Translations under genes and position numbers: made by a program
Notes under the pieces: model-generated
Told to the model about the DNA's origin: nothing
The model's input: only the letters and a program-made list of their open reading frames with translations
Databases searched by the model: none
Shown here: piece after piece, positions 22,654 through 36,555 of the stretch
Layout: each line of letters begins with the position of its first letter
Position numbering within the stretch: position 1 is the stretch's first letter
Source of the DNA: an uncultured Alphaproteobacteria bacterium
GTDB lineage: Bacteria > Pseudomonadota > Alphaproteobacteria > Micavibrionales > UBA9664
Length of the DNA: 62,800 nucleotides
Direction: 5' to 3'
NCBI GenBank assembly: GCA_964010795.1
Contig: CAXGMH010000002.1
Location: 1-62,800, forward strand

Positions 22654-24480
22654 TTACTGACAGCTGAGGCATTCCTCATATTTAGCCGGCTCTTCTGCCA
22701 CTGGCTGGCCTTCTTTCGAACGCTTCCAGCTGGCATCTGATTCAGCACGCTGAATTGAGCGAGAACGGCAGTAATACAAGCTCTTCACACCCCTCTTCCA
22801 TGCCATGTAGTGAATCTGGTGCAGGTCTTTCTTGTGAACATCCGCAGGAAGGAAGATGTTCAAAGACTGTGCCTGACAGATAAATGGCGTACGGTCAGCG
22901 GCGTGCTCGATCAACCAGCGCTGATCCATCTCAAATGATGTCTTGAACACATCCTTTTCATCTTGGGTCAGGAAATCAAGATGCTGGACAGAGCCTTCAT
23001 TTGTGTAGATAGAGCTCCACACATCTTCCTGCTCTTCCTCGGTCATCCCCTTATCATCCATAAGCTGTTGGAAGTAACGGTTCTTCACACCGAAAGACCC
23101 AGATAGCGTTTTATGAGTGTAGGCATTGGCCGCGATTGGCTCGATCCCCGGAGATGCACCGCCACAAATAATAGAGATAGAGGCTGTTGGTGCGATTGCC
23201 ATTTTATTGGAGAAACGCTCCATGCGGCCATAATCCGCAGCATCCGGGCAAGGGCCACGCTCATGCGCAAGCTTGACAGAGGCATCATCTGCCTGACGCT
23301 TGATCTGTTGGAACATACGACGGTTCCAGACCTTCGCCATCACTGATTCCATCGGGATCATTTTTGACTGTAGGAAAGAGTGGAAGCCCATCACACCCAA
23401 GCCAACAGAGCGCTCGCGCATGGCAGAGTATTTTGCCTTTTTGAAGTTGTCCGGCGCTTTGTTGATAAAGTCTTCCAAGACATTATCAAGCATCCGCATC
23501 ACATCTTCGATAAAGGTCGGGTGGTCTTGCCACTCATCGAATTTTTCGAGGTTTAGAGATGAAAGACAGCAAACAGCCGTTCTATCCTTACCATCCTGAT
23601 CGATTCCTGTCGGCAATGTGATTTCAGAACACAAATTAGATGTCTTAACCGACAGACCTGCCATTTTGTGGTGTTCAGGGATCGCACGGTTAACATGATC
23701 GATATAGATGATGTAAGGCTCACCTGTTTCAACGCGCGCTGTAAGCAAACGAATCCACAGATCACGCGCCTTCACTTTATCAATCACAGAGTTATCATAA
23801 GGCGAACGCAAAGCCCATTCATCATCAGTTTCAACCGCACGCATGAAAGAGTCTGTAACCAGAACACCGTGGTGCAGGTTCAACGCCTTACGGTTATGGT
23901 CACCGCCTGTCGGACGACGCAGCTCAATAAACTCTTCAATTTCCGGGTGCCAGATCGGCAAGTATACAGCCGCAGAACCGCGACGCAAAGATCCTTGGGA
24001 AATCGCCAAAGTCAAAGAGTCCATAACACGGATAAACGGAATAATACCCGATGTTTTACCGTTGCGACCAACTTTCTCGCCGATTGAACGAATATTGCCC
24101 CAATAAGAGCCAATCCCGCCACCACGAGCCGCCAACCAGATATTTTCATCCCAAAGACCGGCAATGCCGTCAAGGCTATCTTGTGATTCGTTCAAGAAAC
24201 ATGAGATCGGTAAGCCACGATCCGTACCGCCATTAGAAAGCACAGGAGTCGCAGGCATAAACCACAAATTTGAAATGTAATCATAAAGGCGCTGCGCATG
24301 AGCATCATCGTCACCATAGTAACGAGCGACACGTGCGAAAAGATCTTGATACTGCTCATCCGGCATCAGATAACGATCGGTCAGAGTCGCCTTACCGAAT
24401 TCGGTCAAATTCTCATCACGAGCATTATCAATTTTAATACGGGGGCCGACATCACTTTGTCGCACGTTATTATCGAACAT
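22654..24480 (-). CDS. nrdA: Ribonucleotide-diphosphate reductase alpha subunit (short form without a long N-terminal ATP-cone region)
   Basis: 608 aa. Contains NLCSEI (active-site Cys/Glu), the PTASIS region, and a C-terminal CLSCQ redox pair. AAGGAG lies upstream of the ATG. Confidence 0.9.
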   Translation of the reverse strand: MFDNNVRQSDVGPRIKIDNARDENLTEFGKATLTDRYLMPDEQYQDLFARVARYYGDDDAHAQRLYDYISNLWFMPATPVLSNGGTDRGLPISCFLNESQDSLDGIAGLWDENIWLAARGGGIGSYWGNIRSIGEKVGRNGKTSGIIPFIRVMDSLTLAISQGSLRRGSAAVYLPIWHPEIEEFIELRRPTGGDHNRKALNLHHGVLVTDSFMRAVETDDEWALRSPYDNSVIDKVKARDLWIRLLTARVETGEPYIIYIDHVNRAIPEHHKMAGLSVKTSNLCSEITLPTGIDQDGKDRTAVCCLSSLNLEKFDEWQDHPTFIEDVMRMLDNVLEDFINKAPDNFKKAKYSAMRERSVGLGVMGFHSFLQSKMIPMESVMAKVWNRRMFQQIKRQADDASVKLAHERGPCPDAADYGRMERFSNKMAIAPTASISIICGGASPGIEPIAANAYTHKTLSGSFGVKNRYFQQLMDDKGMTEEEQEDVWSSIYTNEGSVQHLDFLTQDEKDVFKTSFEMDQRWLIEHAADRTPFICQAQSLNIFLPADVHKKDLHQIHYMAWKRGVKSLYYCRSRSIQRAESDASWKRSKEGQPVAEEPAKYEECLSCQ

Positions 24481-24863: not shown

Positions 24864-25871
24864 CTACCGCGCAGGAATGGTCAAGCTAGCGACAAGCCGT
24901 GCTTCTCTTGACGAAACCTGATACTTCTCTCTGAGCTTCTCAACATGAGATTGCGGACCAAGCACACCCGACTGCGCCGCATCATTGAACATTCCATCAA
25001 AATCAATATGTCCGTATTTGGAATAGAGCCTGATTGCCGTTTCAGCAAACAAAGGCCCATGCCCGTCTACTCCGACGACCCTTCCTTTTTTCGCCGCCAT
25101 GTCTAATGCTTGGCAATGGTCGATGTAATGCGCCAATTCATGAAGCAGAACATTCGTATCGGCAAAATTAGGTTCGATATATATTTCCTGAGAAGATGTG
25201 CTATAGAATGCGCACACCTCACCTGGTATGTTTTTAATCTTGATTTCAATCGGCTCGACGCCTTCTTCTTCACAAATCTTATCTGAAAAACTGCGCAGAT
25301 CCTCTTCAGTTGGAAGCAGGTCACCCTGTCTTTGAGCAACAGCAATCATTTGGATGGCTGTCAGGTAATCATTCTCAAACCTATACCATTTCTTTTCTTG
25401 CAGATCATGAAGGAAAGCATCTGCATTAGCAGAGCGCGCATTAACAATTTCATTAAGAATATTGTTGATGTCTTTTTTCAATGCCCATTGAACGCCCCAT
25501 GCTGCTATAGGCAAACTTACGAGAGGAATAAGGAAACCAAGAATATCGAACTGAATACGATCCGCGAGAGCGTCCCCGACAAAAAAACTGGCCAAGAAAA
25601 CGGACGCTGCGGCACCGCGGATCACATTTTCCTTTCCACGCATAAGAATATGCAGATGGGCGCTACTCAAGTATTTAGCATCATCAACAAATTTACGCGC
25701 AGCGCAAGCTCTGAGAAAGGTTTTAGTCAAGGACTTCTCTGGCGCATGGCGCGGCGTAACTTTCAATCTGGTGGTGCCGAATCGCCCATGAGAGAGCAAG
25801 AAACTGTGATCCGAATGCGGAGAATAGCTCTCTTCAATTAAAAGCCCGTTACTATCTTTTTGATTAGCCAT
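24864..25871 (-). CDS. Membrane-associated SprT-like zinc metalloprotease-domain protein (paralogue 1)
   Basis: 335 aa. A central hydrophobic pair of helices (ASVFLASFFVG...LGFLIPLVSLPIAAWGV) is followed by LLHELAHY ... GHGPLFAET. Confidence 0.55.
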   Translation of the reverse strand: MANQKDSNGLLIEESYSPHSDHSFLLSHGRFGTTRLKVTPRHAPEKSLTKTFLRACAARKFVDDAKYLSSAHLHILMRGKENVIRGAAASVFLASFFVGDALADRIQFDILGFLIPLVSLPIAAWGVQWALKKDINNILNEIVNARSANADAFLHDLQEKKWYRFENDYLTAIQMIAVAQRQGDLLPTEEDLRSFSDKICEEEGVEPIEIKIKNIPGEVCAFYSTSSQEIYIEPNFADTNVLLHELAHYIDHCQALDMAAKKGRVVGVDGHGPLFAETAIRLYSKYGHIDFDGMFNDAAQSGVLGPQSHVEKLREKYQVSSREARLVASLTIPAR

Positions 25872-25916: not shown

Positions 25917-26831
25917 TCAATGCGGGGCTTTATAAGCAACAAAGGAGTCGGATCGGTCACGATATAATTGATATTTCTTGCGAAGCTCGCAAACATGGCT
26001 TTGCGGGCCAAGCAGCCCGCGCTCAACCGCCGAATCGAACAGATAGTCAAAATTAACACCACCATAACGGGAATACAGCGTAACAAGCGTTTCAACAAAC
26101 AAAGGCCCATGCCCATAATAGGCATAATCTCTTCCTCTATTCTCACGAGACAGGCGCTCTATTGTGAAATAATGCGCCAACTCATGCAAAAGCATATCAA
26201 GCCGCTCGGCATCAGGGCCTAACATAATACGTTTTTCATTTGCGCTATACGCTCCCACTGTTCTCGGCAGGCTGGGCTCGGCCATAACCGGGATCGGTTC
26301 AAAGCCTTGCTCACGGCATATTTGATCGGAGCGTTGCTGAAGCAGACCTAAATCACCTTGCTCCCTCTTCAAAACATCTTGATTTTTAAGATATATCAAA
26401 TGAGCAGACACACGATCAAAAAGATAAACCTTTAAACGAAAAGGGTCATAAAGATCGGCAAAAGCTGCGCCATTCTCTTCCTCTCCGGTTAAGAATAACT
26501 TTTTACACCAATATGCAATCGCCGAAGAAAGTATAAATTTAGACAACATAGGGACAGCCCTAAAAGGAGCCATGAGCCTCTCTACTTTCTTTGCCGTTAT
26601 CCTTAAATGAGCATCATAAGACGTTAAGTATTTTAACGTCTTATAAAAATCTATGGCCTGCGCTGAAGAGTTAAAGCGGATGGAAAGCCCTCCACGCGAC
26701 CAGGCTCGAGGTCGCAATGTGAGTTTTGAGCCGCCAAACACAGAGGGTTTCATAGTAAAATATGAATCAGAGTATGGCGAGTACCATATTTCGCCTGAAT
26801 TTCCCTTGGACGCACATTGATTAAAAACCAT
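25917..26831 (-). CDS. SprT-like zinc metalloprotease-domain protein (paralogue 2)
   Basis: 304 aa. It contains LLHELAHY ... GHGPLFVET and aligns with paralogue 1 at both the N-terminus (YSPYSD...KLTLRPR) and the C-terminus (LLGPQSHV.ELRKKYQ). Confidence 0.55.
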   Translation of the reverse strand: MVFNQCASKGNSGEIWYSPYSDSYFTMKPSVFGGSKLTLRPRAWSRGGLSIRFNSSAQAIDFYKTLKYLTSYDAHLRITAKKVERLMAPFRAVPMLSKFILSSAIAYWCKKLFLTGEEENGAAFADLYDPFRLKVYLFDRVSAHLIYLKNQDVLKREQGDLGLLQQRSDQICREQGFEPIPVMAEPSLPRTVGAYSANEKRIMLGPDAERLDMLLHELAHYFTIERLSRENRGRDYAYYGHGPLFVETLVTLYSRYGGVNFDYLFDSAVERGLLGPQSHVCELRKKYQLYRDRSDSFVAYKAPH

Positions 26832-30027: not shown

Positions 30028-30772
30028 TGAGATCCTGCTGGCTTGGCTCTTTTGTATTATTATTCAGCTCTTCTATTAAGCGGTTCATAATCGCTCTTTG
30101 TCCACCCTCATAAGCAGATTCGCGCGAAGACGACGTGTCACTGCCTGCCTGCCCTTCCTTACCGCTCTCTTCAGGTGGGCTGACTTCTTTCATTAAACGC
30201 TCGAGATTATCCTCTACTCGTGACTTCTCATCCGAGCTATCACTCTCTTCAGTATCGCCCGTATTGGGTAATAATTTCGTTAATGTCTCTGCCGTCCAGT
30301 CGAGATAATAATACGTCGCCGCAGGCTTCACATATTGCTCCTTCATCTCATCGCTCATAAAGATATGGAACGGCAAGTAAAGCAACCCTATCAAAACCAC
30401 GCCGCGCACAAATCCAAAGATAAGCCCGAGCGTACGGTCCAAAGCCCCAAGGCCGACTTTCTCTGCTGCCTCAGAGAGGAAATGCGACAACACGGATAAG
30501 GTAATAATAAACAAGACAAGAATACCGCCATAGGCGCCAACTTTCGCCACCAGTGAGATCGGTAGAACGCCGAATACAGCCTGTGAACCTTCGGCATTGG
30601 GGTCATGTAACATATTATACAAAGTAGGCTCGACATATGGCGCCAGTAAAAACGCCATAAACGCTGCACCGACAAGACCGAACACAGTCAGCACCTCTTT
30701 GATAAAGCCGCGGAAGAAAGCAATCGCCATCGAGACGATCAGAACAATAGAAATGACGATATCGATAATCAT
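30020..30772 (-). CDS. cvpA: CvpA family membrane protein
   Basis: The N-terminus DIVISIVLIVSMAIAFFRGFIKE and 4 TM helices fit CvpA. The gene lies immediately upstream of purF and overlaps it by 8 nt. Confidence 0.85.
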   Translation of the reverse strand: MIIDIVISIVLIVSMAIAFFRGFIKEVLTVFGLVGAAFMAFLLAPYVEPTLYNMLHDPNAEGSQAVFGVLPISLVAKVGAYGGILVLFIITLSVLSHFLSEAAEKVGLGALDRTLGLIFGFVRGVVLIGLLYLPFHIFMSDEMKEQYVKPAATYYYLDWTAETLTKLLPNTGDTEESDSSDEKSRVEDNLERLMKEVSPPEESGKEGQAGSDTSSSRESAYEGGQRAIMNRLIEELNNNTKEPSQQDLNE

Positions 30773-30851
30773 GTCTTAAGATTTAGGCAAATCGCTGGAC
30801 TTTTGCAAGGCAAAAGCCTACCTAAGACACTAGGGAAAGGATGGATTTGTT

Positions 30852-31838
30852 ATGAAAGCAATTATATTTGAAAATTTCGGTGCCGCCACGGACGTCTTGA
30901 ATGCTACCGAGATTGAAAAGCCACAGCCACAAAAAGGCGAAGTCCTCGTCCGCATACACACAAGCGGGGTTAATCCATCCGATGTAAAAAAAAGAGCCGG
31001 CTCTTTCCAAAATCTTCTTGATGACGGCTATGTTATTCCGCATAGCGACGGTGCCGGCATGATTGAAGCCGTAGGCGAGGGCGTTGATAAAAACAAAATC
31101 GGCCAAAAAGTATGGGTCTATCAGGCACAACATCGCCGCAGATTCGGCTCGGCCGCTCAGTATATTTGCCTACCCGAAGACCGTGCACCTGAACTGCCCG
31201 AAACCGTTGATTACGCAACAGGCGCTTGTTACGGCATCCCTGTTATGACCGCACATCGCTGTGTTTTTGCCGATGGCGATCCCAAAGGGCAAACAATTCT
31301 CGTCACGGGTGGAGCGGGCAAGGTTGGTTATTACGCGATACAATGGGCGGTTAAAGCAGGCGCCAATGTCATCGCCACGGCCAGCAATGACGAAGATGCC
31401 GCTCTTTGCAAATCCTTGGGCGCTACCCATATCGTCAATCACCGCGAAGAAGGGTGGGGTGGCCAGATCTTGGATTTACTCGACGGCGGTAAGGTTGACC
31501 GTGTGGTCGAGGTTGAATTCGGATATAATTTGACTGAGGTTTTAAAGGTCTTGCGTATCGGCGGCACGATTGCGACCTATTCATCGGCGCGTGCTATGAA
31601 CCCGACAATTCCTTTTTACAAGATGCTGTTTATGGATGTGACCACACGATTCGTGCTTGTTTATGATATGCCTGAGTCAGCAAAACAGCAGGCAATTTCT
31701 GACATTGCAAAGGCCGAAAAAGAAGGCTGGCTCAAACACCGAATTGCCAAACGATTCGCTTTTGATGACTGCGCCAAAGCCCATGAATTTGTCGAGGCCG
31801 GCTCGCCGGGCGGATGTGTTATTGTGGAAATTGATTAA
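30852..31838 (+). CDS. NADPH:quinone oxidoreductase-like medium-chain dehydrogenase
   Basis: 328 aa with a GroES-like N-terminal domain and the GGAGKVGYYAIQWA nucleotide-binding motif. Confidence 0.8.
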   Translation: MKAIIFENFGAATDVLNATEIEKPQPQKGEVLVRIHTSGVNPSDVKKRAGSFQNLLDDGYVIPHSDGAGMIEAVGEGVDKNKIGQKVWVYQAQHRRRFGSAAQYICLPEDRAPELPETVDYATGACYGIPVMTAHRCVFADGDPKGQTILVTGGAGKVGYYAIQWAVKAGANVIATASNDEDAALCKSLGATHIVNHREEGWGGQILDLLDGGKVDRVVEVEFGYNLTEVLKVLRIGGTIATYSSARAMNPTIPFYKMLFMDVTTRFVLVYDMPESAKQQAISDIAKAEKEGWLKHRIAKRFAFDDCAKAHEFVEAGSPGGCVIVEID

Positions 31839-31841
31839 ACT

Positions 31842-32390
31842 TTAAGGTGTTGGTGTATTACATTGCCCCGTTGCGCGGTAGCGCATTGTCTCCTCTCGAG
31901 AGTCCGTGAAACATACTGTCTCGCCGGTTTCTTCTTCATAGCGAGCGATTGCCTCTTCGATCAAACGGGCACGGAGATTAGTAGCAAGTTGCCCCCGTTC
32001 ATCGGAAGTGAGCCGATTCATTAAATTCGAAAGGTTGTTGTTTACACCGAATACTGCACCGCCCATGCGTCTCGAGAAGAAATAGCTATACAAATTTCCT
32101 GTAGAATAAGAAAAACCAGAAACATGGTCTTCACCCATAGTATTTGCGCCATTGAAACTATATGTCGATTCAGAGTGGGTTAGGAAAAAAAGCGCTTCAT
32201 GTTCGAAAACGTTGGAAAGCCAACGATTTTTATCATTAAATCCTTCAATAATTTCGAGCGTTTCTTTACCATTTATAAATCCAAGGTCTTCATTTATAGA
32301 AGCAATCGCATGGTTTTCAAGTATGACATGACATACTACCAAAAATGCAGAGGCAGCTACTACTATCGAAACCTTATCTTCATAATTCAT
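31842..32390 (-). CDS. Membrane-anchored hypothetical protein (cassette paralogue X1)
   Basis: 182 aa from ATG 32390 (AGGGGA 5 nt upstream). One N-terminal TM helix. The C-terminal 55 aa are about 88 percent identical to the product of 32784..33368. Confidence 0.6.
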   Translation of the reverse strand: MNYEDKVSIVVAASAFLVVCHVILENHAIASINEDLGFINGKETLEIIEGFNDKNRWLSNVFEHEALFFLTHSESTYSFNGANTMGEDHVSGFSYSTGNLYSYFFSRRMGGAVFGVNNNLSNLMNRLTSDERGQLATNLRARLIEEAIARYEEETGETVCFTDSREETMRYRATGQCNTPTP

Positions 32391-32458
32391 AATTTTCCCC
32401 TGGCTCATTCGAATGTCTCGGTAAGCTATCAACCAAAACAACAATATGTCAACAAAAA

Positions 32459-32728
32459 TCAATCGGCGGTTTTATGCTCTTTAGCGGTGGTGCCTGGGCG
32501 ACCGAGCATTGTCAGGAGGTCTGCGAGGCTGTCCATCTTAAGCACAGACAGGCTTTCGATTTTATCAGGCAGGGCTTTGCGCCCCTTGCCAGTCGGTGCG
32601 ATGCCGTGTTTAAAGCCAAGTTTTGCGGCCTCTTTCAGGCGTTGCTCTGCCTGCGCCACAGCGCGGATTTCTCCTGCCAAGCCGACCTCGCCAAACACAA
32701 CCGTGTCACCGTCATTTTCTACTCCCAT
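32459..32728 (-). pseudogene. Orphan duplicate of the last 82 codons of radA (possibly expressed as an 89-aa ORF)
   Basis: 32459-32707 aligns without gaps to 33438-33686. The translation is identical to the RadA C-terminus except for one residue (E for G). TTGACA-N17-TATGTT lies at 32769-32741. Confidence 0.8.
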
Positions 32729-32783
32729 ATATTTTTTTAGAACATAAAGCGAAAATAGCAATATGTCAAACATAATCAAACTC

Positions 32784-33368
32784 TTAAGGTGTTGGCCCAT
32801 TACATTGTCCTGTTGCGCGGTAGCGCACTGTCTCTTCTCTTGAATCGGTAAAACATACTGTCTCGCCGGTTTCTTCTTCATAGCGAGCGATTGTCTCTTC
32901 GATCAAACGCGCACGGAAATTAGTAGCAAGTTGGTCACGTTCATCGTTTGTTAAGCCTCGCATTCCATGTGTTATATCCTCATCAACATTAAAGGCTGTC
33001 CCATATAATTGCCGCATACCAAGAAGCGTAGACAAAGTCCCTGTTGCATGATTAAACCCTGTAACAGAGTCTTTGCCAAAATTATTGATGAAAACGGACC
33101 GATGCATCAATTCAGAGCCATTAATAATGCTTTGCGCCTCTTCAGTGAAAATATCAGATAGCCATTTTTCTCTGTCTTCAAAACCCTCAATCACTTCGAT
33201 GGTTTCAACACCGTTGATGTGGCCAAGTTTATCAGTGATAGAAATAACTTCTTCATCATCACTTGCGCCATCAAAAGAGACAACAATTGAAAAAAGGCCT
33301 GCACAAATTGACACAACGATCCCAGAAAACAAACCAAACCCCATAACCACAGATCTATCATCACTCAT
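32784..33368 (-). CDS. Membrane-anchored hypothetical protein (cassette paralogue X2)
   Basis: 194 aa. GAAGGTGA lies upstream of the ATG, and TTGACA at 33431-33426. One N-terminal TM helix and the conserved C-terminus RARLIEETIARYEEETGETVCFTDSREETVRYRATGQC. Confidence 0.65.
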   Translation of the reverse strand: MSDDRSVVMGFGLFSGIVVSICAGLFSIVVSFDGASDDEEVISITDKLGHINGVETIEVIEGFEDREKWLSDIFTEEAQSIINGSELMHRSVFINNFGKDSVTGFNHATGTLSTLLGMRQLYGTAFNVDEDITHGMRGLTNDERDQLATNFRARLIEETIARYEEETGETVCFTDSREETVRYRATGQCNGPTP

Positions 33369-33437
33369 ACATTTTCACCTTCATAAAATTATTAATTATG
33401 AATAACTATATATAAGTAGGCAATATGTCAATAAAAA

Positions 33438-34871
33438 TCAGTCGGCGGTTTTATGCCCTTTAGCGGTGGTGCCTGGGCGACCGAGCATGGTCAGGAGGTC
33501 TGCGAGGCTGTCCATCTTAAGCACAGACAGGCTTTCGATTTTATCAGGCAGGGCTTTGCGCCCCTTGCCAGTCGGTGCGATGCCGTGTTTAAAGCCAAGC
33601 TTAGCCGCCTCTTTCAGGCGTTGTTCGGCTTGCGCTACGGCGCGGATCTCGCCCGCCAAGCCAACCTCTCCAAACACAACCGTGTCAGAGGCCATTGGCT
33701 CGTTATTCATTGAGCTAATAAGCGCAGCGGCAACAGCCAGATCGGCGGCTGTCTCGCTCACACGGAAGCCACCGGCGATATTAAGATAAATGTCATGCTG
33801 ACTCAGCACGATCCCGCAACGCGCCTCAAGAACGGCTGTAATCATTGCCAAACGGTTGGAATCCCAACCAACAACGGCGCGGCGCGGTGTTGCAAAGCTG
33901 GTCGGCGCAACGAGTGCCTGCACCTCAACCAACACAGGGCGAGACCCTTCCATCCCCGCAAGAATACAACTGCCCGGTGCTTGGCCTTGGCGCTCGGAGA
34001 GGAACAGCTCGGACGGGTTGGCGACTTCCTGCAAGCCGTCTTGTGTCATGTCAAACACACCGATTTCATCAGTCGGACCAAAACGGTTCTTCACAGCACG
34101 CAAGATTCGAAAATGATGGCCGCGATCTCCTTCGAAATACAGGACGGTATCGACCATGTGCTCCAGCACACGCGGTCCGGCAATCATGCCTTCCTTAGTC
34201 ACATGACCGACAAGGACAATGGCGATATTATATTTCTTGGCGACTCGGATCAGTGCCTGAGACGACACACGCACCTGCGTCACCGTTCCGGGTGCTGAGT
34301 CGACATTATCGACATACATCGTTTGAATTGAATCGATAATAACCAGTTTCGGCTTGGTCTCTGCCTGTTCAAGAGATGTCACAATATCACGAATATTGGT
34401 CGCGGCCGCCAACCCAACAGGCGCTTTTTCAAGGCCTAAACGCGAAGCACGCAGGCGCACCTGATCGACCGCTTCCTCTCCGGAGATATAAAGACAACCC
34501 GTCTTTTGCGCAGCCATTTTACATACTGCCTGTAGCAGCAAAGTCGATTTCCCGATCCCCGGATCTCCGCCAAGGAGGATACAACTCCCCGGCACAAGCC
34601 CGCCACCAAGCACACGGTTAAGCTCTTCAAGCTGTGTTGAAATCCTTGGCAACGTCTCGCCCTGCCCGTCAAGGGAGACAAAATCAATGCGTTGGCCTTT
34701 GGCCGTACTGCCTGCTCCGCTCGTTGTGGCTGACAATCCTTTTGGCGGCCCCGCCTCTATGCGCTCCTCTATCATTGAATTCCATGCGCCACAAGCTTCA
34801 CACTTGCCTGCCCATTTCTTCGCAACCGAGCCGCATGACTGACATATATATTGCAGTGAACTTTTTGCCAT
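33438..34871 (-). CDS. radA: DNA repair protein RadA/Sms
   Basis: Contains an N-terminal CxxC...CxxC zinc finger, the GDPGIGKST Walker A motif, KNRFG, and a Lon-protease-like C-terminal domain. Confidence 0.95.
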   Translation of the reverse strand: MAKSSLQYICQSCGSVAKKWAGKCEACGAWNSMIEERIEAGPPKGLSATTSGAGSTAKGQRIDFVSLDGQGETLPRISTQLEELNRVLGGGLVPGSCILLGGDPGIGKSTLLLQAVCKMAAQKTGCLYISGEEAVDQVRLRASRLGLEKAPVGLAAATNIRDIVTSLEQAETKPKLVIIDSIQTMYVDNVDSAPGTVTQVRVSSQALIRVAKKYNIAIVLVGHVTKEGMIAGPRVLEHMVDTVLYFEGDRGHHFRILRAVKNRFGPTDEIGVFDMTQDGLQEVANPSELFLSERQGQAPGSCILAGMEGSRPVLVEVQALVAPTSFATPRRAVVGWDSNRLAMITAVLEARCGIVLSQHDIYLNIAGGFRVSETAADLAVAAALISSMNNEPMASDTVVFGEVGLAGEIRAVAQAEQRLKEAAKLGFKHGIAPTGKGRKALPDKIESLSVLKMDSLADLLTMLGRPGTTAKGHKTAD

Positions 34872-34875
34872 AGGA

Positions 34876-36555
34876 CTAGCCCTCTCTTTGGAAGGCCCAT
34901 TTGATCGCAGTCTCTAAGCCATTTAGATTTCCTGAAAGGACAATCTGCATGGTTTTGCGCGGGGTGGCGCCGCGGCCGAGATAAATCGATTCCTCTAAGG
35001 CCAGCTGGCCACCGCGATGGAAAAAGCGCCAACCTTCACCCGATGGTACGCGGATGAGCGCCTCTGTACCTTCACGCACAAGCGAAACCTTGACCGATGG
35101 ATGTAAATGGAAGCGTACGGCATAATGATGTGCTCGGCCACTTTCGAAATCGCGCGTCAGGATATCTTCGCCGCGAAAATCCTCGCCATCCTCGGCCAGA
35201 TATAGACGGCGCTTATGCGTCACGCCATTGAGCGTATAGTATCCGTTATGCGTACTTTCGGCAAAGGCGGCCTGCCCCATATCTTTACGTTTGCAGCCAT
35301 GGGTCAGTGTATTGGTTCGCCCAACATGACCGCTTTCTTTAATTTCATAGGCATTACGGTCATCCATCGTCAAAGTTGTATGCGCAGGCGTACTCCGCAA
35401 AGCATACACCCAATCACTATCCGCAGGATGTGTCCCGCAATTCAAAATGATGCGGTGTTTCCCGCGTGTCATCTCAAAGGCAAGAGGCGCGGCGTGCAAA
35501 CGCTTATCATGGCCGTTCGAGGGCGTACGCCCCGTATCGAACATCACACGAGTCTTACCTTGCGATAAGCGTTCGAACCCGGTTTCCGGCAAACGGGAAC
35601 AGCTCTTGCCGCGCACTCCGGCACGTTTAATAATTAGGGAAAGAAGGTTTTCGGATCCCTCTTGCGTTCCATGAAAAACAGCCAGACGCCTATCGACATA
35701 GCGGAAAAAACGCATAGCGGGCAAAGCACGGTCAAGCGTCTGCTCGATTGTGGGGTGAACAGGATAATTCCCTGCCTTAAGGGCTGCGCGGATATCAAGA
35801 AGCACCATGATTGCCTCGACCAGATCGGCCGGAGAACGTGTCACACAGCCGCCATCAGACAAAATCAGCTTTGGCAAAGATGCTTTAAGCATAGACAGGC
35901 CTTGTTCAATACGGCTTTCCTGTCCTTGCAGCGATATCCCGCCATAAATCAAGCCTTTGGCTATATATAACACGCTAAGCGCGTCTTCATTCTGGCCGGC
36001 ATCAACGGTGGCAATACGGCATATATGTTTGAATTGTCGGCCAAGAGAGTCAAAAAATATGTGCTGAAAATGCTCATCCGCACTCGCACCAAAGAACTCG
36101 TATTGGCCAATCCAGTTTGAAATGCGTTGCCCCGTCAGTCCGGAATTCCAGCTTTCCGGAGACCATTTTCCATCACGCTCTATCCAGCCCAGTATCATTG
36201 ACCTCGCCTGTTTACGGCCGATATCACCACCCAGTGCCTTAAGGTCGCGCAACCAGTCAAAGCTTTGCTGGGCGCGCCAATGCGCCGCCGAATCTTGACG
36301 TTTGACCCAGACACAATCACTGGACTGAAACAATGCGCCTTGATGATCCAGAACATTATTACACAACCAGCGCCCACGCCCTGAATCCCCCGGCCAGACA
36401 TCAGATAAAGAGACAATAAAACGATGCTCGAGCTTTGTCGCCAAAGCCCAGTTATATATCGGCGAACCACAAGCAATCTCTTGCGCCCGGTCTTTGACAA
36501 GTCGGATTGTCGGCTGTATCCAGTTTTTTGCCCGTGCAAGCACTTGCATTCTCAT
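34876..36555 (-). CDS. Heparinase II/III family protein
   Basis: 559 aa. The length and the C-terminal [10 protein letters not shown]...ILNCGTH pattern fit the alphaproteobacterial heparinase II/III-like family. Confidence 0.65.

Follow-up and report, generated by a model that had tools for sequence, protein, structure and literature searches.

Organization of the radA–cvpA locus

We analyzed a 62,800-nucleotide (nt) stretch of DNA from an uncultured alphaproteobacterium (contig CAXGMH010000002.1; the whole stretch is hereafter called the window), in which the 3' end of the conserved repair gene radA recurs downstream as an orphan copy, designated radA'. The host is a marine Micavibrio-like alphaproteobacterium, and the closest sequenced radA shows 77% identity at the protein level. 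The order of elements on the minus strand is radA, M1, X1, a 75-nt junction (J) containing M2, radA', M3, X2, a convergent oxidoreductase gene, cvpA and purF, where X1 and X2 are paralogous genes of no known family and M1, M2 and M3 are copies of a putative promoter motif (Table 1). Allowing at most one mismatch, the motif TTGACATATTGC was found in the 62.8 kb only at the three M sites and at one further mismatched site, which is at chance level.

Table 1. Features of the radA–cvpA locus (window coordinates)
Feature	Coordinates	Strand	Description and evidence
radA (477 aa), intact	33438..34871	-	TIGR00416 RadA, 588 bits (cut-off 403); full-length match to S. pneumoniae RadA 5LKM
Repeat copy R	33421..33687	-	Last 82 codons of radA, stop and ~17 nt of M1; repeat D1, 267 nt, 94% identity
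M1	33414..33441	-	Motif TGATTTTTATTGACATATTGC, overlaps radA stop, upstream of X1; three-copy family D3
X1 (194 aa)	32784..33368	-	No known family; hydrophobic N-terminus, two C-terminal Cys
J	32709..32783	-	Beheaded X-type 5' region; aligns with the M-to-start regions of X1, X2 and X3
M2 (in J)	32752..32779	-
-35 element (in J)	32769..32764	-	TTGACA
-10 element (in J)	32746..32741	-	TATGTT
In-frame ATG (in J)	32728..32726	-	In frame with radA'
Shine-Dalgarno (SD)-like element (in J)	32726..32722	-	GGGAG
SD-spaced ATG (in J)	32715..32713	-
radA'	32459..32707	-	Orphan copy of radA codons 396–477 and stop; repeat search, base-by-base alignment, Pfam
Diverged patch in radA'	32621..32690	-	Counterpart in radA 33600–33669; 13 synonymous, 0 non-synonymous differences
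M3	32435..32462	-	Upstream of X2; left part in the radA-tail copy, right part M2-like; repeat search and alignment
X2 (182 aa)	31842..32390	-	X1 paralogue, 52% identity; alternative start 32408
T' repeat (X2 3' end)	31842..32004	-	Repeat D2, 89% identical to the X1 3' end (32784–32946)
Oxidoreductase gene	30852..31838	+	Convergent, quinone-oxidoreductase-like; Pfam ADH_N, ADH_zinc_N; absent from the sister locus

Three contigs from a sister lineage show a simpler layout; the core genes of this lineage are 80–92% identical to those of the window at the protein level and saturated at synonymous sites. These contigs begin inside the radA tail, at codon 22 of the repeat, and continue from the radA 3' end through a TTGACATAT box, a single X gene (X3), cvpA and purF, without the oxidoreductase gene. 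A full search with a hidden Markov model built from X1 and X2 identified X3 as the third member of the X family (E = 8e-46).

Repeat of the radA 3' end

The orphan copy (32459–32707) aligns without gaps to the last 82 codons and the stop codon of radA (33438–33686) at an offset of 979 bp, and our recount thus reproduced the 249-bp alignment described in an earlier note that was made by reading this DNA. The two copies differ at 16 positions, 15 of them synonymous third positions, exactly as counted before. The sole non-synonymous difference is located in codon 77 of 82, which is GAG (Glu) in radA' and GGG (Gly) in radA. The binomial probability of such an excess of third-position differences (at least 15 of 16) is 8e-7. 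Homology extends ~17 nt past the radA stop codon into the repeated motif TGATTTTTnTTGACATATTG, resulting in a total repeat length of 267 nt (32442–32708 and 33421–33687). The formal rate comparison that the earlier note had proposed was performed by the Nei-Gojobori method and yielded, over the whole repeat, 0.29 substitutions per synonymous site (dS) and 0.005 per non-synonymous site (dN).

Besides the window itself, 13 metagenome contigs of the same lineage (numbered within L081–L094) are 99.9–100% identical to the window wherever they align, and three of them (L081, L083 and L084) span both copies of the radA tail, so the layout is not an assembly artefact. Comparison of cassette copy number across the lineage contigs, another check suggested in that note, revealed no single-cassette variant, and all contigs covering the relevant part (i.e., carrying X1, X2 or radA) match the window layout.

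A synonymous patch inside the repeat

The differences between the copies are strongly clustered, with 13 of them located in nucleotides 18–87 of the repeat and three in the last 162 nt. A maximum chi-square analysis placed a breakpoint at repeat nucleotide 87 (permutation p = 0.012), in agreement with the gene conversion or recombination junction near position 32,620 that had been proposed earlier. The clustering had also been described before, as a diverged distal block; this shape did not hold, because the two copies do not differ over the initial 17 nt of the repeat, and the diverged stretch is thus an internal patch, neither a gradient nor a distal block. The best-fitting patch comprises codons 6–29, with a log-likelihood 3.2 above that of a block reaching the left edge. 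Within these codons, 13 of 24 third positions differ and all other positions are identical, whereas outside the patch the copies differ at only 3 of 179 coding nucleotides and at one of the ~17 nt past the stop. Accordingly, codons 1–29 of the repeat show a dS of 1.16 and a dN of 0, compared with a dS of 0.05 and a dN of 0.008 in codons 30–82.

The divergence within the patch is at the level observed between species. In the patch block, 13 of 29 third positions differ between the two copies, compared with 15 and 13 of 29 between radA of the window and its two closest sequenced relatives, whose RadA proteins share 77% and 74% amino acid identity with it; the radA tail of the sister lineage shows a comparable dS of about 0.86. 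If four to eight of the 13 changes in the patch had arisen without constraint, the probability that all are synonymous would be between 9e-3 and 2e-5, so the patch does not result from neutral decay of the orphan. The reasoning of the earlier note that synonymous-only divergence reflects constraint at the protein level holds (neutral-decay probability at most 9e-3). Random clustered mutation likewise cannot yield a patch of purely synonymous changes, and the template must have been a sequence with an evolutionary history inside a working radA. As expected for a recombination tract, the cluster is sharp-edged and flanked by near-identity on both sides, and 13 of its 13 differences are synonymous. 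Of the two origins considered in the earlier note, the evidence favours the one in which the sequences diverged inside full-length radA genes of different lineages and were then brought together by recombination. A search for a radA of another lineage matching the synonymous variants of the orphan gave none, the patch of the orphan had 0 matches in an exact scan of the JGI metagenome contigs, and codon usage gave no signal as to which version of the patch is foreign.

Polarization with the sister radA tail as an outgroup assigned all three polarizable differences outside the patch to radA' or M3, namely ACC to ACA, GGG to GAG (Gly77Glu) and A to G in M. This polarity would fit an unconstrained orphan copy, the numbers being small. 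The coding differences outside the patch comprise one non-synonymous and two synonymous changes, and both polarizable ones are derived on the fragment; these counts are very small.

A similar clustering was observed within the sister lineage, where L095 and L096, contigs obtained from different samples, show only 5 mismatches over 1693 nt, and all of these lie in a 19-nt stretch of the radA 3' end (positions 123–141; four synonymous changes and one Thr/Ala replacement). This clustered tract provides a precedent for the same kind of patch. Both contigs start at the same base, which may indicate a branching of the assembly graph and perhaps a second radA tail in the sister lineage.

The junction upstream of the orphan copy

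J, which separates X1 from radA', is, on the evidence of its alignment, the beheaded 5' region of an X-type gene, with a promoter motif, an untranslated region (UTR), an SD sequence and an ATG codon. Its segment AAAAATATATG-GGAG resembles the sister-lineage 5'UTR AAAAATATATGTGGAG (shuffle p = 0.01). Two other sources of J were considered and rejected, i.e., a decayed 3' end of the oxidoreductase gene (p = 0.65) and the X3–cvpA spacer of the sister lineage (p = 0.28). M2 scores 10/12 in the promoter scan and is the best sigma-70-like match in the region. The ATG at 32715, located six bases after GGGAG, is out of frame with radA' and opens a 26-codon open reading frame (ORF). The in-frame ATG at 32728 overlaps GGGAG and is without a ribosome-binding site of its own, and a further ATG at 32800 is preceded by AGGA 7 nt upstream but lies inside X1. 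The radA' frame stays open as far upstream as position 32881, and gene prediction yields a 113-aa product on 10 contigs. Thus, the TTGACA-N17-TATGTT element (32769–32741) and the ATG at 32728, from which an 89-aa product had been proposed, are indeed present in the sequence, but not as a start belonging to the fragment.

The left join of radA' falls within a few bases of the X-type start codon, with ACGGT present on both sides (X3 start, ATGGATACGGTA; radA codons 396–398, GACACGGTT), and this short chance homology may have guided an illegitimate join. The right end of the copy lies within the TTGACATATTG core. At the protein level, the crystallised P domain (5LKQ) aligns to RadA residues 282–451, and radA' begins at residue 396. 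The fragment thus holds ~56 of the ~170 residues of the Lon-like P domain, its last third, and is not a complete folding unit; the Pfam match of radA' to the ChlI/Lon-like model is confined to the final 43 model positions.

X genes and the radA–cvpA gap in related genomes

Both X1 and X2 have a hydrophobic N-terminus and two conserved C-terminal cysteines, and their GC content is 0.42, compared with 0.48 for the window. Their last 54 codons (dS 0.38, dN 0.07) are far more similar than the remainder (dS 1.76, dN 0.61). The divergence of the two radA tails outside the patch is far below that of X1 and X2, and the radA-tail copy is therefore much younger than the X paralogues. M3, beyond the end of the copy, is closer to M2 than to M1. 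Searches of Pfam, NCBIfam, PHROGs, PADLOC and PDB gave no match that would point to a function of the X genes, the AlphaFold model of X has a pLDDT (per-residue confidence score) of 50, and an Rfam scan of positions 30700–35000 identified no RNA family.

Among 80 related genome loci, neither an X gene nor a second radA tail was found. In the two closest genomes, radA is followed directly by cvpA or the two genes are separated by an unrelated reverse-strand gene. The lineage-specific content of the gap differs from relative to relative, with a reverse-strand 160-aa ORF in L001 (9436–9918), nothing in L002 (9417–9424) and an unrelated ORF in L101 (549–860). Judging from these gene orders, the radA–cvpA gap is a variable spot and a hot spot of gene gain among the relatives.

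Contig L098, from another organism, carries a distant member of the X family (P0245, E = 2e-5) upstream of greA, flanked on both sides by a 25-nt direct repeat, TCTTGACGAAATCCAAAAAATCGGC (positions 111–135 and 873–897, 88% identity). Upstream of this gene lies AATTGACATAAAAAT, which over 15 nt is identical to the leader of the sister X3. X genes may travel as small promoter-bearing cassettes.

Variant and chimeric contig ends

Two contigs of the window's lineage, L085 and L086, begin with an unrelated AT-rich sequence (positions 1–170) whose junction coincides exactly with the downstream M1 boundary (window position 33413), and beyond these 170 nt both continue with X1–radA'–X2 at 100% identity. 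The 170-nt sequence has 0 matches in the window, the JGI metagenome contigs and the viral contigs. It could represent a strain variant, a second locus or a chimera; other chimeric ends occur in the same assemblies.

Unrelated sequence is also fused to radA at the ends of L084 (positions 1–121), L100 (1–32) and L101 (1–115); in L084, it is a MutL-like coding stretch joined at window position 33747. These fusions are most likely assembly chimeras, and they make radA tails appear as separate ORFs in protein databases (P0123 and P0124). L100 and L101 were considered as carriers of orphan radA tails and rejected as contig-end chimeras.

Within the 163-nt X repeat, the X2 path of L086 switches to an X1-type 3' end (contig positions 1660–1691; window 32866–32835 versus 31924–31909). 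Recombination between the X 3' ends (942-bp circle, deletion or amplification) would be expected to create such a switch; a path choice of the assembler could also account for it.

Origin of the orphan copy

The explanation we favour, with slightly better than even confidence, is a recent illegitimate copying of the radA tail combined with a short patch from a diverged functional radA, so that radA' would be a non-functional by-product of two ordinary recombination events downstream of radA. The proposed setting is a radA–cvpA gap that holds fast-evolving, family-less X genes, each with its own TTGACATAT-type promoter motif M. In the first and recent event, ~267 nt of the radA 3' end (codons 396–477, the stop codon and ~17 nt of M1) would have been copied downstream of X1. 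The left end would be an illegitimate join a few bases past an X-type start codon in a pre-existing X array, so that an X-type promoter, 5'UTR, ribosome-binding site and ATG (now J) became fused out of frame to radA', and on the right the copy would stop inside the common M core. In the second event, homologous recombination would have overwritten a short tract of one copy (codons 6–29; minimum length 70 nt, maximum just under about 180 nt), the template being a radA allele that had diverged to the level seen between species; since this allele had been part of an intact radA, it would have brought in synonymous differences only. The repeat with its counts, the internal patch, the homology and reading frames of J, the single-X layout of the sister lineage and the polarity of three sites are direct observations, whereas the order of the two events, their mechanism, the choice of the copy that received the patch and the sequence formerly present between J and M3 belong to the inferred part of this account.

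Several points weigh against this explanation. The protein and DNA collections that were searched contained no donor, meaning a radA with one or the other version of the patch. A full-length RadA search against 5.8 billion protein clusters gave a best match of 78% identity, a search with the C-terminal 145 aa of RadA gave no close match besides the orphan ORF, and two metagenome DNA scans for a donor gave nothing. The placement of the patch inside the repeat, rather than at its edge, hangs on five identical third positions (approximately p = 0.02–0.05). Only 3 of the 13 patch sites are comparable with the sister contigs, and these split 1 to 2. The L095 and L096 variants could be two paralogous copies in one genome and not alleles. 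The sequence replaced in the first event may have been short, or it may have comprised a third X gene. Finally, all sampled contigs are clonal, and they consequently offer no population variation for a direct test of selection.

Both a recombination scar and a mosaic tract are known kinds of events, here found in a poorly sampled lineage. As in mosaic genes such as the pneumococcal pbp genes and the housekeeping alleles of Neisseria, a sharply bounded, purely synonymous tract with species-level divergence is embedded in near-identical sequence; in contrast to these cases, the comparison partner is not an allele of another strain but an orphan 979 bp away in the same genome, and the presence of this orphan is the only reason why the tract is visible at all. 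Similar to gene-fragment relics of illegitimate or microhomology-mediated duplication, radA' is a truncated 3' copy with one end lacking extended homology and the other located in a short common motif. It differs from such relics in that the parental junction sequence is not at hand, so the role of the ACGGT microhomology is inferred.

If this explanation is correct, the locus provides a caution that a gene fragment with exclusively synonymous differences need not be under selection, as the signal in radA' would stem from a short tract templated by another functional allele and viewed against a very young duplicate. The orphan would then serve as an internal snapshot of radA, revealing short-tract exchange with relatives as distant as other species in an uncultured, rarely sampled, marine Micavibrio-like lineage. 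It would also point to the radA–cvpA gap as a place where lineage-specific, rapidly evolving, family-less genes accumulate. No new molecular system is implied by the radA' locus.

Alternative explanations

One alternative is that a unit consisting of the radA 3' end, M and X from a related species (radA'–M3–X2 or R–M1–X1) was inserted beside the resident unit. One end of this insertion would be homologous (the X 3' end or radA) and the other illegitimate, as in homology-facilitated illegitimate recombination or the insertion of a Campbell-type circle, and later gene conversion would have made the copies uniform over the first 17 nt and over the 180 nt nearest the stop. Related species with the radA 3' end–M–X layout do exist, the synonymous divergence of the patch is at the inter-species level, and the left junction is illegitimate, all of which agree with an import. 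The X genes provide mixed evidence, as the N-terminal parts and 5'UTRs of X1 and X2 have diverged like those of orthologues from different species, but their C-terminal parts are far closer mutually (dN 0.07–0.10) than to X3 (dN 0.55–0.61), demonstrating a shared history within the lineage. Moreover, the identity flanking the patch would require at least two extra conversion tracts, a tract that ends in the 11-nt M core and gives way to unrelated sequence is more simply explained as the edge of a fresh copy, and no donor has been sampled. We therefore consider such an import unlikely.

A functional version of the locus, to which we assign a low probability, is that the radA tail acts as a homology arm of a cassette-exchange locus, where X genes would be acquired, displaced and swapped among lineages via the conserved radA 3' end and M. 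The X genes would then encode fast-evolving, possibly exported proteins of a predatory bacterium, and each gain would leave a radA-tail orphan to be trimmed later, resembling the orphan-module arrays of polymorphic toxins but on a housekeeping gene. Like the orphan 3' modules of Rhs and CdiA, the locus presents a main gene, a small variable gene, a displaced 3' fragment and another variant of the small gene, and the retained homology could permit swapping. Unlike in these systems, the main gene here has a conserved repair function, the amino acids specified by the orphan are the same and offer no alternative tip, and X is a separate gene with its own predicted promoter and no toxin or immunity signature.

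It is quite improbable, in our judgement, that radA' is a translated and selected gene fragment. Here, an old tandem duplication of the radA tail–M–X unit would have placed an 89-aa product (or a 113-aa product starting from the ATG at 32800) under the control of M2 and under purifying selection, for example as a putative modulator of RadA ring assembly, with the stop-proximal part recently homogenised by gene conversion. The absence of non-synonymous change in the patch at a dS of 1.16 is consistent with such selection, and this dS is of the same order as that between X1 and X2, which possibly points to the same age; however, an old duplicate would not be expected to lack third-position differences in its first five codons, as this copy does, and the only amino acid change is derived on the orphan. 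The promoter is the best sigma-70-like match regionally, but together with the 5'UTR and the SD sequence it belongs to a beheaded X gene, and the proper ATG of that gene is not in frame with radA'. Similarly, the frame is open to 32881 and a 113-aa product is called on 10 contigs, yet at 99% protein identity a copy automatically retains an open frame. The product would contain only ~56 of ~170 residues of the Lon-like P domain and a poorly conserved tail, and it has no counterpart among the 80 related genome loci. The translated 89-aa protein suggested by the earlier note is thus not borne out, given the origin of its promoter and ATG, the out-of-frame position of the SD-spaced ATG, the partial domain and the polarizable changes outside the patch, which are all derived on the orphan.

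Least probable of all is a site-specific mobile element that targets the radA 3' end and supplies a surrogate 3' end, with the two copies as attL and attR. A direct repeat of a gene 3' end with mostly synonymous differences is the classic signature of such elements, the upstream gene is intact here as it is in them, the radA–cvpA gap is variable among relatives, and L085 and L086 carry a different sequence joined exactly at the M1 edge. However, domain searches of the ORFs between radA and cvpA (X1, radA', X2 and the oxidoreductase) revealed no integrase or recombinase, and the supposed element would measure just 979 bp and contain a single gene. Both repeats are followed by M and X sequences that are mutually homologous, which would not be the case if an unrelated element had inserted between att sites, and the left boundary of the orphan is located at the start of an X gene and not in an att core. 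The frequency of contig-end chimeras weakens the alternative junction of L085 and L086 as evidence. The attL/attR-like integration raised in the earlier note was abandoned on these grounds, and a literature search for radA as an integration target found nothing relevant.

Other features of the window

A second tandem pair of family-less genes is located elsewhere in the window, where two adjacent paralogous ORFs of 335 and 304 aa (24864–25871 and 25917–26831, minus strand; 34% identity, E = 2e-42) lie between an SDR gene and a large ORF (22654–24480). They have a common LLHELAHY motif and no Pfam match.

Upstream of cvpA, there is a perfect hairpin, CTTTTGC-(3 nt)-GCAAAAG (window 30800–30816), of which L002 has a single arm only (CTTGCAAAAG). 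The hairpin is kept in the sister lineage (about 812–828 in L095) despite the different neighbouring gene, which is the oxidoreductase gene in the window and X3 in the sister lineage.

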